Shown: piece by piece, positions 2,915 to 15,147 of the stretch
Layout of the letters: each line of letters opens with the position of its first letter
Position numbering within the stretch: the first letter of the stretch is position 1
Origin: an uncultured Muribaculaceae bacterium
Lineage (GTDB): Bacteria; Bacillota_I; Bacilli_A; RF39; UBA660
Assembly (NCBI GenBank): GCA_964600095.1
Contig: CAZRIC010000002.1
Coordinates: forward strand, 1 to 25,120
Reading direction: 5' to 3'
Length of the DNA: 25,120 nt
Translations under genes and position numbers: made by a program
The notes under the pieces: generated by a model
Databases searched by the model: none
Told to the model about the DNA's origin: nothing
Seen by the model: only the letters and a program-made list of their open reading frames with translations

Positions 2915-2924
2915 CAAGACTATT

Positions 2925-3016
2925 CCTCATCTTCCGACAACGTCGCAGGATTTAGCACCTAACTAAATAGGTTGCTGGACTTCATAGGGCCTGTCCCTCA
3001 GTCTCTCTTCATAAGG
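2925..3016 (-). promoter_or_regulatory. SAM-I (S-box) riboswitch aptamer
   Basis: Minus strand reads CCUUAUGAAGAGAGACUGAGGGACAGGCCCUAUGAAGUCCAGCAACC...AGGUGCUAAAUCCUGC...GGAAGAUGAGG, matching the SAM-I consensus (kink-turn, GCAACC, GGUGC, GAUGAG); lies directly upstream of metK. Confidence 0.93.
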
Positions 3017-3024
3017 TTTCTTAT

Positions 3025-11007: not shown

Positions 11008-11967
11008 TTAAATATTTTGAATAGATAAAATTTCAATTTGATTAGATAAAAGAGTAGGATTATTCATTTTTGACTTTGTTAAATCTGTTGTTAAATATTT
11101 TTTGAAATCATCTGCAAATATAGTAACAGCATTATCATTATTATCAGAAGCAATAATAGAAGCTAGTAGATTAGCACCACTAGATATTCCAACTCCTAAA
11201 CCAAATTTTTTGGCTAAAATTCTAGACATATTAATGGCATCCTCATCATTGATAGAAATAATTTTATCAATCGCTTCTCTATTTACAATGGTTGGGATAA
11301 AATCATCTCCAATTCCTTCAATTTTATGGCTTCCAGTAGCAAATTTATTAGATAAAATCGGTAGTTGTGAAGGTTCTAAAGCAATTATTTTAGCATTTTT
11401 ATGAATTTCTTTAATTCTTTTAGATATTCCCATTAAAGTTCCACCTGTACCAATCCCACTGACAACAGTATTAATTTTTGAAACTTGTTTGACAATTTCC
11501 AAACCAGTCGTTTCATAGTGAGATTCTATATTCCTTATATTATCAAATTGATTAGGTCGAAATCCATTAATCTTTTTAGCAAGTATGTCAGCTTGTCTAA
11601 TTGCTTCTAGAAAACCACCTTCTTCTTTAGAAATTAAATGTACAGTGGCACCATATAATTTCATAATTTCTATTCTTTCTTTACTAGCCCAGTCTGGCAT
11701 AAAGATATGTACGGGATGGTTAAAATAGGCTCCTAAGGCAGCAAAAGATATTCCTGTATTACCACTGGTTGCTTCTACTATTGTCATTCCTGGTTTTAAA
11801 GTACCATCTTCATACGATTTTTTAATAATATAATATGCTAATCTATCTTTAATACTTCCTGTATAATTATAATATTCTAATTTAGCATATACATTTACTA
11901 TTTTTTGATTATATTTCGCTATTATTTTTATCATAGGTGTATTTCCTATTAAGTTTTCTATATTCAT
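11008..11967 (-). CDS. cysK: Cysteine synthase family (O-acetylserine sulfhydrylase-like, PLP)
   Basis: IGNTPM, KLEYYNYTGSIKDR (PLP lysine), EATSGNTGI, GIGTGGT, HKIEGIG, GISSGAN. Confidence 0.93.
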   Translation of the reverse strand: MNIENLIGNTPMIKIIAKYNQKIVNVYAKLEYYNYTGSIKDRLAYYIIKKSYEDGTLKPGMTIVEATSGNTGISFAALGAYFNHPVHIFMPDWASKERIEIMKLYGATVHLISKEEGGFLEAIRQADILAKKINGFRPNQFDNIRNIESHYETTGLEIVKQVSKINTVVSGIGTGGTLMGISKRIKEIHKNAKIIALEPSQLPILSNKFATGSHKIEGIGDDFIPTIVNREAIDKIISINDEDAINMSRILAKKFGLGVGISSGANLLASIIASDNNDNAVTIFADDFKKYLTTDLTKSKMNNPTLLSNQIEILSIQNI

Positions 11968-12046
11968 GATTTTCCTTCTTTCTATTATATTTTATATGTA
12001 AAGTAGGAAAACAACATCGTATAGAATTTACTAATTTTTTGAACAT
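11909..12046 (-). CDS. Candidate second uORF (45 aa, Cys-Cys) overlapping the cysK start out of frame
   Basis: AAGGAGG, 7 nt, ATG; MFKKLVNSIRCCFPTLHIKYNRKKENHEYRKLNRKYTYDKNNSEI*; stops 59 nt inside cysK. Confidence 0.45.
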   Translation of the reverse strand: MFKKLVNSIRCCFPTLHIKYNRKKENHEYRKLNRKYTYDKNNSEI

Positions 12047-12096
12047 AAAAAGACCTCCTTAATAATGAATGTATAAACTCACTATTAAGGAAGTCT
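12047..12096 (-). terminator. Attenuator terminator of the cysK leader
   Basis: AGACUUCCUUAAUAGUGA pairs with UCAUUAUUAAGGAGGUCU (18 bp, 2 G-U), 10-nt loop, then UUUU. Confidence 0.85.
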
Positions 12097-12123
12097 ATTA
12101 TCCCAATTTTTATGAGTTTACAC
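12071..12123 (-). promoter_or_regulatory. Antiterminator helix of the cysK leader
   Basis: GUGUAAACUCAU (12123-12112, includes the leader stop codon) pairs over 12 bp with GUGAGUUUAUAC (12082-12071). An inner GGGA/UUCC helix sequesters more of the terminator 5' arm. Confidence 0.75.
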
Positions 12124-12177
12124 GAAAAAAAGAATATAGCAATAACAACAACAATTTGCAAATACTCTTTTTTTCAT
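12118..12177 (-). CDS. Cys-rich leader peptide of cysK (19 aa)
   Basis: AAGGAG SD about 8 nt upstream; MKKRVFANCCCYCYILFFV*; Cys at codons 9, 10, 11 and 13. Confidence 0.85.
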   Translation of the reverse strand: MKKRVFANCCCYCYILFFV

Positions 12178-12211
12178 TGTAATCTCTCCTTTTTTTTTCT
12201 TGCGTGAATAA

Positions 12212-12240
12212 ATTATATCATAGAAAGCTTATTTATGCAA
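12212..12240 (-). promoter_or_regulatory. sigmaA promoter of the leader-cysK transcript
   Basis: TTGCAT (12240-12235), 17 nt, TATAAT (12217-12212), with extended TG. Confidence 0.8.
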
Positions 12241-12247
12241 AGATGCT

Positions 12248-13066
12248 TTATTTCTGTTTGCTTTTTCTTTCTTGATAATGATTATATAAGTTATAGTATT
12301 TATAATGATTTTCAATAGGTTGGAGTTCTTGTGTATCATTTTTTAATTCTTCTTGATAATCCTCTAATAATTCAAGTTCAAATTCAGAAGGAGAACCACT
12401 ATATCTTCTAGAATTTAAGCTTTTCGTAATAGAATAATTTTGAGGATAGAAATTTGTATTTCTTCCAAATTGGTCAAATGTCGATAAATTAACACCCGGA
12501 TCATGGCTATAACCACTTTTAACAGCTTTTGAAATACTATCAAAATATAAATCTATATCACATTCTCTTACTCCATAAAAAATGTCTACCATTTTACCAC
12601 TTACTTCGTCTATCATGGCATTACCTATTAATATAATTCTTTCCCCATTTTTTAATTTAGGATGTCTTCCATCGCCATAACCAAAATATAATTTTTCTGT
12701 TTCTCTTTTATATTCTTCACTAATAGGTAATCGTCCTTTTCTTATAGCATCTAATTTAGGAATAATTACTCTAATGCAAAAGGGTTTAGAATAATCTGGT
12801 AAAGTATAGATGATGGCAGCTTCTGATAATGGTCTTCTATATTCAAGTACCTGTTTTATTCTATCATCTCGTTCTACAAATGACATTTCACCTTTAATAA
12901 CAAATTCACTTTGTGGTAGTTCTGTCCATCGTCGAATATATTTTCCATTTTTTACTCTTTCTTTTATTTTAGCAGGAATATAGGACGTAGAGTGATGAAA
13001 ATAGGTAAAATCATATGGAATAATAATCGAATCCATTTTTCTTAAAATTTCTATTTTTTCTTGCAT
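12248..13066 (-). CDS. Hypothetical protein
   Basis: 272-aa ORF with AGGTG SD and an upstream extended -10; no family recognised. Confidence 0.75.
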   Translation of the reverse strand: MQEKIEILRKMDSIIIPYDFTYFHHSTSYIPAKIKERVKNGKYIRRWTELPQSEFVIKGEMSFVERDDRIKQVLEYRRPLSEAAIIYTLPDYSKPFCIRVIIPKLDAIRKGRLPISEEYKRETEKLYFGYGDGRHPKLKNGERIILIGNAMIDEVSGKMVDIFYGVRECDIDLYFDSISKAVKSGYSHDPGVNLSTFDQFGRNTNFYPQNYSITKSLNSRRYSGSPSEFELELLEDYQEELKNDTQELQPIENHYKYYNLYNHYQERKSKQK

Positions 13067-13200: not shown

Positions 13201-15147
13201 ATGAGTTTACAAAGGTTTACTTATGGCTCAAATGCATCAAAAATAAGAGTTTCTAATAATATTAATTTTCAAACAGGTAAAGTACCTGATCGTGTTTTTC
13301 ATGAAAGAGGTTACAGAAATCCTGCTTGTGATAATAATGATATAGATTATAATGGAATTCTTCCTGGGCAAGATAGTTCTTATTATGAATCCATTGCGAA
13401 TGCAATGTTGGAAGATTTAGTTATCGGGGTTAATGATCCTAAAATTAATCGTGAAAATACAAGAGTATTACAATCGGCTATGGACTTTTTAGCAGAAAAT
13501 GGCGGTGGAACACTTAATTTACCAGCAGGTGAAATCTATTTTGGACAAGGTGGTACTGCTGGAACCAATGCAGCTAGCGGAGAAAGATTTGCCATTTTGT
13601 GTAGAAGTAACGTACATTTAAAAGGAGCAGGAGCAGATTCTACTATTTTAAAACCGGTTCGTTCTTTTAGTGAAAATGAATCAAGCAGTATGGATATGTT
13701 CTTTTTTAACCATTATTCATCAGGAAATCCTCCATATGCTAAAAGAGCAGATGGTAGTAATTTTCAAGCTGGAGATACAGTAGATTATACTTATATTGAT
13801 CTTGAAGGAAACTATGTTACTCTTACGGATGAACCTATTTATTTAACTAATGCAGATTTTAGTGATTTTACAATTGATGCTAGTAATGTTTTAGGAAATA
13901 AAGGAAAATATACTACATCTGGTAAAGGTTTTATGATCAATTTATTTAAAGATTGTGACTGGAATAATGTAGTTGTAAAGGATACAGATGCTACTGGATT
14001 TGGTATGGATTGTCCAATCAACTGTACCATTACTAATTGTGTGGCAATAGGTTGTGGAAAGCAAGCAGATACTACCTCTGGAGGAGCTAGTGGCTTTGGT
14101 ATTGGAACTGGATACGCCAATGGAGAATCTATATTAATTGCTAATTGTAGAGCTTATAATAATACAAAGTATGGTATATTCTTTGAACATCAATCAAGGT
14201 TTCAATCAGATACAAGTAGATATCCAGCGACAACTTCAGATGGATTCTTAGTTGTTAATTGTGAGGCTGGGGGTAACTTATATGATTTTGGTGGTATTAA
14301 AGCCTATGATGTTACTCTAAAAAATGTAAGAAGTATCAGAAGTGAAGAAGAATTATATAGAAATTCAAGAACTATTGCAGCATCTCCTTTAGCGTATAGT
14401 TTGCAAGCAAGTTCAACTTTACCTGTGGATAATTCTAATTTTACATTAGATCGTTCCATTAATAGTGAATATACTAGACAACATCTATATTTTTCTGATT
14501 ATTCCTCTAATTGTCATGTAGAAGAGAGTAATTTATATTCTAATATAATAGACTTTAATCATTCTGAACCTGAAATTTCATGGGCAATTAATTCTGGTAG
14601 TATGACTTTGAAAAATCCAAATGAGTTTGGAAGTAAAGATTCTCTTTCTAGAATGGAAGTTATGCAAATATTATATAGATATAATGGTATGCCTAATGCT
14701 ATAGATGTTACAGGACGCCGTTCAATTGGACAAGATACATTAGCCAAGATTAATACTTATAATGAAACTGGAAACAATTTTAATGATTTAGGAAACTATG
14801 CTAGTGAAGATGGTGGATTAGACGCAGTTCTTTGGGGAGTAAATAATAAGATTGTTATGCCTAATGCCTCTTTTAATCCAGAATCTGTATGTACGCGTTC
14901 CCAAATGGTAACAATGTTATATAGAATGGCTGGTTCTCCTAACTCTAGTGGAGCAGTTCCTTTTACAGATATTCAAACTGGTTCATGGTATTCTGATGCA
15001 CTTACTTGGGCATATAATAATGGAATAATTAAAGGAGTAAGTCTTACGGAATTTGCTCCGAATAAAGAATTAACAAAAGAAGAAATGGCAATTATATTAT
15101 CACGTTATGATAATATGCTTTCTTCTTCTTCAATAGCGACACTTTAA
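13201..15147 (+). CDS. Right-handed beta-helix (pectin-lyase-fold) protein with three C-terminal SLH-like repeats
   Basis: NTRVLQSAMDFLAENGGGTLNLPAGEIY N-cap, Gly/Asn-rich beta-helix rungs, SLH-like segments ending SRMEVMQILYRY, TRSQMVTMLYRMAG and WYSDALTWAYNNGIIKG...FAPNKELTKEEMAIILSRY. Confidence 0.82.
   Translation: MSLQRFTYGSNASKIRVSNNINFQTGKVPDRVFHERGYRNPACDNNDIDYNGILPGQDSSYYESIANAMLEDLVIGVNDPKINRENTRVLQSAMDFLAENGGGTLNLPAGEIYFGQGGTAGTNAASGERFAILCRSNVHLKGAGADSTILKPVRSFSENESSSMDMFFFNHYSSGNPPYAKRADGSNFQAGDTVDYTYIDLEGNYVTLTDEPIYLTNADFSDFTIDASNVLGNKGKYTTSGKGFMINLFKDCDWNNVVVKDTDATGFGMDCPINCTITNCVAIGCGKQADTTSGGASGFGIGTGYANGESILIANCRAYNNTKYGIFFEHQSRFQSDTSRYPATTSDGFLVVNCEAGGNLYDFGGIKAYDVTLKNVRSIRSEEELYRNSRTIAASPLAYSLQASSTLPVDNSNFTLDRSINSEYTRQHLYFSDYSSNCHVEESNLYSNIIDFNHSEPEISWAINSGSMTLKNPNEFGSKDSLSRMEVMQILYRYNGMPNAIDVTGRRSIGQDTLAKINTYNETGNNFNDLGNYASEDGGLDAVLWGVNNKIVMPNASFNPESVCTRSQMVTMLYRMAGSPNSSGAVPFTDIQTGSWYSDALTWAYNNGIIKGVSLTEFAPNKELTKEEMAIILSRYDNMLSSSSIATL

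Follow-up and report, generated by a model that had tools for sequence, protein, structure and literature searches.

This locus raises the question of how a gene of the cysteine synthase family, labelled cysK, is controlled in an uncultured gut member of the Bacilli with a small genome. The preliminary description of the window (the whole 25,120-nucleotide stretch of DNA that was analysed) had read the region upstream of the gene as a ribosome-mediated cysteine attenuator, and this reading is supported by the comparison with relatives. From the sequence we propose that a ribosome-read cysteine switch with two stages probably lies before cysK. The first stage, a cysteine-gated attenuation of transcription through a short reading frame, ORF1, is likely in our judgement; the second, in which another short frame, ORF2, would lead to the unmasking of the Shine-Dalgarno sequence (SD) of cysK, is put forward with only slightly better than even confidence.

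In Bacillus and Clostridium, genes of cysteine synthesis are controlled by cysteine or sulfur amino acid supply through Cys T-boxes, S-box riboswitches and CymR. These systems, differently from the switch proposed here, sense by uncharged tRNA, SAM or a protein, and none of the three types of control was detected at the cysK locus. The T-box covariance model (RF00230) had no match in the window, while the same genome carries 8 T-boxes above threshold and a SAM riboswitch elsewhere. A search of the window against Rfam gave no family at the gathering threshold. The candidate rli56 (RF01483), at 12024-12124, scored 31.9 bits against a gathering threshold of 47, with an alignment carried by the long AU-rich hairpin, and was absent from the 150 genomes of the class that were searched; we treat this sub-threshold match as a chance one, driven by the hairpin.

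The leader and the gene behind it

Sequence inspection placed all the features listed in the preliminary description on the minus strand and at the same positions. Two conserved parts of the leader were missing from that description, the helix P1 and the second mini-ORF; they are included in the following list, which runs in the direction of transcription.

12212-12240, minus: sigma-A-type promoter (-35 TTGCAT at 12240-12235, 17-nt spacer, extended -10 TGaTATAAT at 12220-12212)
12186-12189, minus: SD1, GGAG, 8 nt before the ORF1 ATG, near-invariant across 19 aligned leaders
12162-12188, minus: region 1, the 5' strand of P1 (SD1, AUG and first ORF1 codons), from the minimum free energy (MFE) fold and the RNAalifold consensus
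12118-12177, minus: ORF1, putative leader peptide MKKRVFANCCCYCYILFFV and stop, 19 codons, ATG at 12177
12139-12153, minus: candidate sensing Cys codons 9, 10, 11 and 13 of ORF1 (4 Cys in 5 codons)
12114-12137, minus: region 2, whole, the 3' strand of P1 and partner of region 1 (last ORF1 codons and stop)
12112-12123, minus: antiterminator 5' strand GUGUAAACUCAU (last ORF1 sense codon and UAA)
12071-12082, minus: antiterminator 3' strand, or region 3 (inner 5' arm and loop of the terminator)
12047-12096, minus: predicted intrinsic terminator, a 20-bp stem (12096-12051; -25.4 kcal/mol) followed by UUUUUAU
12054-12058, minus: SD2, GGAGG, of ORF2, buried in the terminator 3' arm
11909-12046, minus: ORF2, second mini-ORF, starting at 12046
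12011-12046, minus: conserved first 12 codons of ORF2, MFKKLVNSIRCC
12017-12019, minus: CGA (Arg) of ORF2
12011-12016, minus: UGU UGU of ORF2
12000-12012, minus: anti-SD strand (last ORF2 Cys codon and the pyrimidine-rich codons after it)
11970-11983, minus: cysK SD region AGAAAGAAGGAAAA, the 3' strand of the sequestering hairpin
11008-11967, minus: gene under the proposed control, encoding a 319-aa PLP-dependent member of the cysteine synthase family (Pfam PALP), Fn1055/CysK2-like

Transcription is predicted to start near 12205, about 28 nt 5' of the ORF1 ATG. Four Cys codons out of five stand out in a genome of 28.4% GC in which Cys accounts for about 1% of codons. In the MFE fold, P1 puts SD1 and the AUG of ORF1 into a stem and its Cys codons into the loop. 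The leader as a whole folds at -52.5 kcal/mol, against -25.4 +/- 3.7 for shuffled sequences (z = -7.4). The terminator, whose stem is unusually long and AU-rich, is one of 3 terminator-like sites in the 2.5 kb scanned, where 0.6 are expected. The tail of ORF2 crosses the start of cysK out of frame.

The gene was labelled cysK in the preliminary description. Its product belongs to the cysteine synthase family but scores 293 bits against a cut-off of 344, below the NCBIfam (TIGR) cysK/cysKM cut-offs, and its best solved relative is Fn1055 of Fusobacterium (5B53, 306 bits), followed by the next structure at 207 bits. Fn1055 converts cysteine to H2S and serine in vitro (PMC9600241). A search for cysE in the genus did not find this gene. 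We keep the name cysK below as a label.

Conservation and covariation of the leader among relatives

Within the genus, 4 further species carry the leader before the orthologous gene. In genome and metagenome collections we recovered 19 distinct leaders of the same kind, here called type A, each before the orthologous cysK-like gene, in metagenome-assembled genomes (MAGs) of uncultured gut Bacilli or "Tenericutes"; the relatives of the host are labelled there as uncultured Bacilli/Tenericutes, Mycoplasma sp. CAG:776 or Ca. Coprovivens. In the CysK tree the type A leaders form one clade (support 100/99). Two close relatives, L004 and L007, do without the leader, a point against its importance for the gene. 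A covariance model of the leader (R1), run on 150 genera of the family, added one further leader, G161, again before the same gene. A DNA search of the genus found no copy of the leader before any other gene, and a scan of the host's own genome found no other poly-Cys leader and no other ORF2-like frame. As none of these genus, family and own-genome searches gave another gene, we regard this as a single-gene leader and not as a regulon. Upstream of 20 orthologue loci without the leader, no Rfam family was detected.

The preliminary description had made its reading depend on whether Cys codons and helices recur in homologous leaders, and they do: Cys runs occur in all of them, the terminator covaries and the antiterminator is 93% paired. 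Each ORF1 homologue has 2-5 Cys codons, the first of them at codon 7-9 in type A leaders of other genera and at codon 3 in the leader L057. All that ORF1 conserves is its Cys run, the start of the frame and the place of its stop codon; along the peptide, the Cys run is the sole constant feature besides residues dictated by region 2, and the rest varies. Mini-ORFs with a CCC run were found upstream of 25 of 76 species-level loci, against 0/76 for the reverse complement and 0.05% of shuffles. Upstream of ORF1, the TG-extended TATAAT is conserved at equal distance in type A leaders.

The helices are also maintained. The terminator with its U-tail downstream of ORF1, as previously described, is present; in the type A alignment 93% of its cells are paired, with compensatory changes in 8 of 20 pairs. 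P1 shows compensatory pairs in the RNAalifold consensus and, in the register of the window itself, has 75% of cells paired and 3 pairs changed on both sides. The covariation score of P1 and terminator together was reached by none of 500 shuffles. All type A leaders have a run of at least 4 U directly 3' of the stem, and so do 9 of the 10 aligned type B leaders (those of the sister clade), the exception being L201.

The antiterminator proposed earlier, in which 12123-12112 is complementary to 12082-12071 and shares this strand with the terminator, was likewise recovered: in type A its 93% of paired cells compare with 22-51% when the partner is slid. It should be noted, however, that in type A this helix is kept mainly by invariance, since only 1 pair is changed on both sides, a value matched by 200 of 500 shuffles. 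In type B and L057 the same complementarity is re-created by different sequences, and the 1:2, 2:3 and 3:4 helices are all kept there in unrelated sequence. An inner GGGA/UUCC helix, proposed earlier as a further competitor, is present in the three closest leaders but is not conserved beyond them. Farther away, leaders in Clostridia MAGs have a textbook trp-like 1:2/2:3/3:4 arrangement with the Cys codons in region 1. Four unrelated leader architectures precede the same gene family, all with CCC runs.

The second frame is conserved in another way. All type B leaders and nearly all type A leaders have SD2; in L143 it reads GAGG and the stem is displaced by 2-3 nt. ORF2 has the consensus MFKKxVN[S/T]IR-C-C and a variable tail. 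Its Val is encoded by 4 different codons and its Ser/Thr by TCT, AGT or ACT, which argues for coding constraint on the frame. Among leaders taken without selection on these codons, codon 10 is CGA in 31/32 and codon 11 is TGT in 32/32. ORF2 is also present in L146-149 and L193, all of which lack ORF1 and the terminator. When a VNxIR(CGA)M pattern was searched for in 400 genomes of the phylum, matches were at chance level and none was a mini-ORF. Each of the 32 distinct leaders is predicted to form a hairpin that begins at the UGU codons of ORF2 and covers the cysK SD; the mean pairing probability of the SD core is 0.81 against 0.64 for shuffles, a modest margin, and the pairing is that of a U-rich strand with a purine-rich strand. 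In other lineages of these gut Bacilli the hairpin corresponding to the terminator carries the cysK SD directly.

Ribosome positions and the proposed switch

Counted from where the antiterminator strand begins, the ORF1 stop is at +3 or +11 in 17 of 18 leaders, and it falls inside this strand or at its 3' edge. The preliminary description held that a ribosome at the stop masks the antiterminator, and a modelled footprint at that position abolishes the helix in 18/18 type A leaders. The Cys codons lie 13-34 nt upstream of the antiterminator strand, so that a ribosome stalled on them would leave it free; in folds constrained by a footprint at these codons, the antiterminator stays the MFE structure in 44 of 67 states, and 8-19 pairs of P1, the larger part of it, remain in the equilibrium folds of type A. 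In transcripts ending before region 4, however, 10 of 18 leaders already adopt the antiterminator as their MFE structure with no ribosome on them, so a branch leading from no translation to termination finds no thermodynamic support. Folding the leader with and without its frame masked, a check suggested earlier, separated the stop-codon state, but in type A it did not separate the absence of a ribosome from a stalled one; since equilibrium folding cannot tell these two apart, the switch must be kinetic. Another measure, namely whether region 3 was paired with anything upstream, was dropped because it gave no separation of the states. The Cys run adjoins region 1 in L057 and in type B, an arrangement like that of trpL.

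The sequencing runs that a search found to hold this DNA were all DNA runs, and the RNA runs it returned were unrelated. From the sequence features, their conservation, covariation and geometry, we infer that ORF1 and ORF2 are translated, that ribosomes stall on them, that transcription terminates and that the whole responds to cysteine, in the following way. Once the leader RNA, begun near 12205, has emerged, ribosomes would translate the 19 codons of ORF1. With Cys-tRNA plentiful, the ribosome would run to the UAA and, because this codon lies inside the antiterminator strand (12123-12112), would cover that strand; the 20-bp terminator (12096-12047) would then form and transcription would end before cysK. 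With Cys-tRNA scarce, it would stall on the UGU/UGC run at codons 9-13, the free antiterminator strand would pair with the emerging 5' arm and loop of the terminator, and RNA polymerase would read through. P1, which pairs SD1 and AUG with the end of the frame, may impose termination as long as no ribosome has loaded. Read-through would also expose SD2, and a ribosome pausing at CGA-UGU-UGU of ORF2 could hold the hairpin over the cysK SD open, so that cysK would be translated.

A more detailed version of this model is offered tentatively, as a possibility that we rate below even. In it two ribosome sensors act in series: the poly-Cys ORF1 would gate transcription, while ORF2, resembling an arrest peptide and with an invariant rare CGA, would await Cys-tRNA and unmask the cysK SD. 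The ORF2 module would be older than the terminator module and able to work alone, as in L146-149, and the Fn1055-type enzyme would be synthetic. Cysteine shortage would turn on both stages, and the search of the genus yielded no cysE; for these reasons the enzyme would run from serine and H2S to cysteine.

Part of the same observations would also follow from a purely translational relay, in which the hairpin at 12096-12051 mainly sequesters SD2 and is not a transcription terminator, a stall on ORF1 opens SD2 and a stall on ORF2 opens the cysK SD, with no need for ribosome-RNA polymerase coupling. The presence of SD2 in the 3' arm of the hairpin in both type A and type B leaders fits this scheme, as do the double use of the U-run as spacer between SD2 and AUG, the type B leader L201, which retains the hairpin without a U-tract, and the gut Bacilli lineages in which this hairpin carries the cysK SD itself; mycobacterial polycysteine ORFs, moreover, act at translation (10.1101/834739). 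However, helix energies range from -16 to -25 kcal/mol for the terminator and from -12 to -17 for the antiterminator, and with the terminator at -25 against -16 a ribosome stalled on ORF1 would not suffice to hold SD2 open in a finished mRNA at equilibrium. Because the terminator is far more stable than the antiterminator, the choice must fall during transcription. The nearly constant U-run, too, goes beyond what an SD spacer needs. On balance we regard the relay as unlikely.

We give less weight still to the idea that a protein, tRNA or small molecule binds the leader in trans and acts on its hairpins, the Cys codons being incidental or encoding a functional Cys-rich micropeptide. Conserved structures such as P1 and the terminator are indeed seen in riboswitches and protein-dependent attenuators, and the weak rli56 match could be taken in the same sense; but neither Rfam at threshold nor the T-box model returned anything, no conserved core stays unpaired in the leader, which is also too short, ORF1 varies apart from its Cys run, frame start and stop position, and CCC runs recur in all four unrelated architectures of the gene family. 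Just as improbable, in our opinion, is a control of opposite direction, with ORF2 as an arrest peptide sensing free cysteine, whose excess would induce a cysteine-degrading lyase of the Fn1055 type. TnaC is an arrest peptide that senses tryptophan. Like arrest peptides, ORF2 is conserved at the amino-acid level, and the closest characterised enzyme, Fn1055, breaks cysteine down to H2S and serine in vitro (PMC9600241). Against this, ORF1 looks like a plain hungry-codon sensor whose geometry allows only read-through on stalling, serial stages of opposite sign would never both be on, and the invariant Cys codon comes right after CGA, as Cys-tRNA sensing would predict.

Relation to known leader-peptide systems

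The kind of switch proposed for ORF1 is a textbook one. With trpL, hisL, pheL and leuL of E. coli and Salmonella, and with Rli60, it has in common a short frame to be translated with a cluster of end-product codons, mutually exclusive antiterminator and terminator, an upstream 1:2 helix, and a stop sited so that a finishing ribosome would mask the antiterminator strand. It differs from them in its cysteine specificity and shows no sequence or Rfam relationship to them; in type A the Cys codons lie in the 1:2 loop, region 1 consists of the SD and AUG of the frame itself, and the 3' arm of the terminator carries the SD of a second putative sensing ORF. In Listeria monocytogenes, experiments on Rli60, which precedes ilv-leu, have shown attenuation of transcription by a leader peptide (PMC5864092); for bacilli, a His leader has been predicted (PMC2965389). 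The earlier opinion that such an attenuator would be unusual in Firmicutes has therefore to be toned down, since leader-peptide attenuation of transcription has precedents there. Of the cysteine version we found no description in the literature on Firmicutes or on the host group.

Leader-peptide control is least documented for cysteine, the published cases being ORFs acting at translation in Actinobacteria and a cysS motif predicted in Alphaproteobacteria. In mycobacteria, polycysteine leaderless short ORFs make up a "Cys ribulon" (Canestrari et al., 10.1101/834739), and polycysteine ORFs had been predicted earlier in Actinobacteria (PMC1262725). The locus resembles them in that a mini-ORF with Cys-codon runs precedes genes of cysteine metabolism and, for the ORF2 proposal, in that a stalled ribosome would block an RNA duplex hiding a downstream ribosome-binding site. 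The mycobacterial ORFs, however, are leaderless and without an intrinsic terminator, while at this locus each ORF has a strong SD and ORF1 is linked with a terminator and antiterminator, in another phylum and with no sequence similarity. For the uORFC-8-2 motif, which lies upstream of cysS in Rhodobacterales (Brewer et al. 2021, PMC8632094), attenuation by the ribosome has likewise been predicted, and it too combines tandem Cys codons with an intrinsic terminator. That motif, however, is alphaproteobacterial, controls cysS and not a cysteine synthase, has its two Cys codons at 14-15 inside the first stem, lacks a second ORF and has an unrelated structure.

As regards ORF2, the proposal is close to translational attenuation of the ermC type, where the downstream SD is hidden in a hairpin until a ribosome pauses on the leader peptide; here, too, a pause in a conserved short leader peptide would open an SD hairpin. 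The trigger would be Cys-tRNA supply at CGA-UGU and not an antibiotic, and the ribosome on ORF2 would cover the anti-SD strand directly, with no four-segment rearrangement.

By its sequence, the locus presents a putative cysteine attenuator, complete with antiterminator and terminator, that is conserved among uncultured gut Bacilli with small genomes; related designs occur in gut Clostridia. The serial layout, with a second conserved ORF carrying Cys codons, is unusual. The leader also offers a functional annotation: its logic predicts that an enzyme of the Fn1055 type, known for H2S production, works as a cysteine synthase using sulfide in organisms where cysE was not found. In addition, it bears on ribosome-RNA polymerase coordination in Firmicutes other than B. 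subtilis; physical coupling of the two has been seen in Mollicutes, to which the host bacteria are related. Natural variants are at hand for comparison, namely type A leaders, type B leaders, loci with ORF2 only and loci with no leader.

Organization of the leader and its known counterparts

From comparison among related loci, we infer that the minus-strand leader upstream of cysK (the regulated gene, of the PLP-dependent cysteine synthase family and Fn1055/CysK2-like) is a real, conserved cysteine-sensing leader-peptide attenuator. We propose two stages, both ON when cysteine is short: a Cys-rich leader peptide (ORF1) would gate transcription, and a second mini-ORF (ORF2) would gate cysK translation.

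Elements of the cysK leader in the window (coordinates, strand, description, basis)
12240-12212, minus: extended sigma-A-type promoter, TTGCAT, 17 nt, TGaTATAAT (sequence)
12189-12186, minus: SD1, GGAG, the SD of ORF1 (sequence)
12188-12162 with 12137-12114, minus: helix P1, pairing SD1, AUG and first codons (region 1) with last codons and stop (region 2) (MFE fold)
12177-12118, minus: ORF1, 19 codons, MKKRVFANCCCYCYILFFV* (sequence)
12123-12112, minus: antiterminator 5' strand GUGUAAACUCAU, including the last ORF1 sense codon and UAA (complementarity to 12082-12071)
12096-12051, minus: terminator, a 20-bp hairpin followed by a U-tract (sequence and fold)
12082-12071, minus: antiterminator 3' strand, within the terminator (complementarity to 12123-12112)
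12058-12054, minus: SD2, GGAGG, in the terminator 3' arm (sequence)
12046-11909, minus: ORF2, with ATG at 12046, 7 nt past GGAGG, and codons 10-12 CGA-UGU-UGU (sequence)
11967-11008, minus: cysK, 319 codons, beginning 79 nt beyond the terminator element (protein family match)

The preliminary description had reported the promoter, the SD, the 19-aa Cys-rich ORF, the terminator and the antiterminator, and all of them were found at these positions, including the 12-bp helix by which the last codon and stop pair into the terminator; helix P1, whose loop holds the ORF1 Cys codons in the MFE fold, and the second mini-ORF were missing from it. The pattern goes beyond chance: the folding energy is -52.5 kcal/mol for the leader and -25.4 +/- 3.7 kcal/mol for shuffles, and about 1% of codons are Cys in this genome of 28.4% GC. 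A 272-aa ORF matching nothing in Pfam or NCBIfam (12248-13066, minus) adjoins the promoter upstream; since no terminator separates this ORF from the leader, some upstream transcription may enter the leader. Farther along, a 648-aa protein (13201-15147, plus) combines a beta-helix region with a C-terminal S-layer homology domain; such a cell-envelope feature is unexpected in a lineage to which the label 'Tenericutes' is often applied.

No Rfam family reached its threshold at the leader; a sub-threshold match to rli56, a cis-regulatory family of Listeria (12024-12124, minus; 31.9 bits against a gathering score of 47), probably owes its score to the long AU-rich hairpin. Elsewhere the genome contains eight T-boxes and one SAM riboswitch (S-box, 73.8 bits; 2924-3017, minus) upstream of metK (2859-1717, TIGR01034), suggesting that methionine/SAM is handled by a riboswitch and cysteine by a leader peptide in this lineage. 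A search for Rrf2/CymR gave no homologue above cut-off.

Cys-rich leader ORFs have been predicted in Actinobacteria, without terminators (PMC1262725), and a Cys-Cys uORF with a terminator has been predicted upstream of cysS in Rhodobacterales (PMC8632094), while a His leader was predicted in bacilli (PMC2965389). The rarity of such a device in Firmicutes, as it had been put, stands in part: the searchable library yielded no account of a leader-peptide attenuator for cysteine in either Firmicutes or Mycoplasmatota, but a branched-chain amino acid leader has been shown in Listeria (PMC5864092). The present leader stands out by having a second sensor in series, by sequestering its own SD and by its implication for the enzyme.

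Distribution and architectures

The source genome is a MAG of 1.45 Mb, 76% complete, whose nearest records ('uncultured Bacilli' and 'uncultured Tenericutes' gut MAGs, Mycoplasma sp. CAG:776, Ca. Coprovivens, Ca. Onthousia, Ca. Ventrenecus) are placed by NCBI taxonomy in Bacilli incertae sedis. The cysK-type gene is patchy in the genus, being present in 6 of 19 other species. Relatives' loci (80 from metagenomes and 80 from species-level genomes) were retrieved by protein, hence the sample is unbiased towards the leader. The comparison of upstream Cys codons and helices proposed in the preliminary description bore out its expectation: the same leader lies upstream in four of the six genus species with the gene and is absent in two, and the covariance model R1 identified 19 distinct full-length leaders of the window's architecture (type A), each immediately preceding the orthologous gene. 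An upstream stretch of 250 nt or more was available for 76 species-level loci, and 25 of these carried a forward-strand mini-ORF with three consecutive Cys, against none of 76 in the reverse complement and 0.05% in shuffled sequences. On the maximum-likelihood CysK tree the type A leaders form one clade (support 100/99), which also includes four ORF2-only leaders and one leaderless locus; this distribution fits a single origin with subsequent losses.

Three other architectures were found. Type B, in the neighbouring CysK clade, has MTK-CCCCC as ORF1, AUGACUAAA, UUUAGUCAUAUAAAC and GUUUAUAUGAU as regions 1, 2 and 3, and a GGUACC...GGAGGUAC hairpin as terminator; its 1:2, 2:3 and 3:4 logic and its ORF2 are identical to those of type A, whereas the sequences differ. 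In type B and at one further relative's locus (L057) region 1 immediately precedes the Cys run, so that stalling would place the ribosome over region 1, as in trpL. Type C, from Clostridia MAGs, follows the textbook trp design: the Cys codons themselves supply the 5' strand of helix 1:2; the terminator is a separate hairpin, and its 5' arm can pair with region 2. Type D, on GC-rich human-gut contigs, has ORFs such as MKKQMIVKTCCCKTQDG upstream of a GC-rich terminator. Nine relatives in the type B clade (L157, L160, L163, L171, L173, L175, L181, L184, L190) have lost ORF1 and ORF2 and retained the type B hairpin, whose GGAGG directly serves the cysK start codon; several share a conserved upstream TTATTAGACAAAATA box, which may be a promoter or operator.

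Helix conservation and ribosome models

Across the 19 type A sequences the terminator is paired in 93% of cells, with both sides changed in 8 of 20 pairs. P1 is paired in 75% of cells in the window's own register (three pairs changed on both sides) and in 89% in the consensus register, with five compensatory pairs; the covariation score of P1 and terminator jointly was reached by 0 of 500 shuffles. The antiterminator, also 93% paired against 22-51% when the partner is slid, has one pair changed on both sides. Within type A it is maintained mostly by invariance, as expected since region 2 has two partners to match, regions 1 and 3; type B and L057, in which the two strands changed together, support it independently.

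The type A Cys run begins at codon 7-9; its first Cys codon precedes the antiterminator strand by 25-34 nt and the last clustered one by 13-28 nt. In 17 of 18 leaders the ORF1 stop begins at position +3 or +11 of that strand. Helix energies range from -13 to -24 kcal/mol in P1, from -12 to -17 in the antiterminator and from -16 to -25 in the terminator. Ribosomes were modelled on 18 leaders, each as a footprint of 28 nt, with the transcript ending immediately before region 4. That a ribosome at the stop would mask the antiterminator was reproduced in 18 of 18 type A leaders, and that one at the Cys codons would spare it agrees with 44 of 67 states, in which the antiterminator is still the MFE structure. 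In these models the core attenuation logic holds. In 10 of 18 leaders the antiterminator is the MFE structure even with no ribosome present, and this branch fails at equilibrium. The choice between antiterminator and terminator is thus well supported, leaving aside the role of P1. In the full-length RNA, most of P1 survives a stalled footprint, since its loop is where the Cys codons lie. Possible roles of P1 in type A are default termination through kinetic precedence, limiting ORF1 initiation to a co-transcriptional window, a pause hairpin, or imposing the need for a second ribosome on SD1.

The second mini-ORF and the enzyme

ORF2 was compared in 32 distinct leaders selected without reference to codons 10-11. 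The first 12 codons are conserved (M-F-K-K-x-V-N-[S/T]-I-R-C-[C/Y]); four codons are used for Val, and TCT, AGT and ACT for Ser/Thr, a variety that shows the frame to be under coding selection. Codon 10 is CGA, which makes up just 6.6% of this genome's Arg codons, in all leaders except one with CAA (31/32), and codon 11 is UGU in 32/32. In every leader the stretch that begins with the UGU codons has a predicted pairing with the purine-rich cysK SD that reaches the bases directly before the AUG, and the SD-AUG spacer (GGAAAAU, GGAUAAC, GGUAAU etc.) covaries with ORF2 codons 11-13. The pairing exceeds that of shuffles modestly (0.81 against 0.64), since a U-rich strand opposes a purine-rich one. 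A ribosome paused in ORF2 would cover the anti-SD strand of cysK; the same action on translation was demonstrated experimentally for mycobacterial polycysteine ORFs (10.1101/834739), whereas here it is proposed. The ORF2 tail runs out of frame across the cysK start in the window; in relatives the stop lies 6-34 nt before that start, or up to 30 nt or more beyond. At five relatives' loci (L146-149 and L193) ORF2 occurs alone with its SD open, ORF1 and terminator being missing, so that it looks like an older, self-sufficient module.

The enzyme scores under the NCBIfam cysK and cysKM cut-offs, and its best solved relative, by a wide margin (306 bits against 207 for the next), is 5B53, Fn1055/CysK2 of Fusobacterium nucleatum. 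A search for cysE gave no match above cut-off, either in this MAG or in five genus genomes 91-94% complete. As both leader stages predict expression under cysteine shortage, we infer that the enzyme runs towards cysteine, from serine (or other activated serine) and sulfide; the logic of the leader points to cysteine synthesis from sulfide with no need of O-acetylserine.

Copies of the enzyme 59-61% identical occur in seven MAGs of Methanobrevibacter, rumen and gut methanogens (L199, L204, L209, L212, L214, L216, L218), with archaeal TATA-like boxes instead of a Cys leader in their upstream regions. Their single clade on the CysK tree is nested within Bacillota sequences and suggests that the gene passed between domains.
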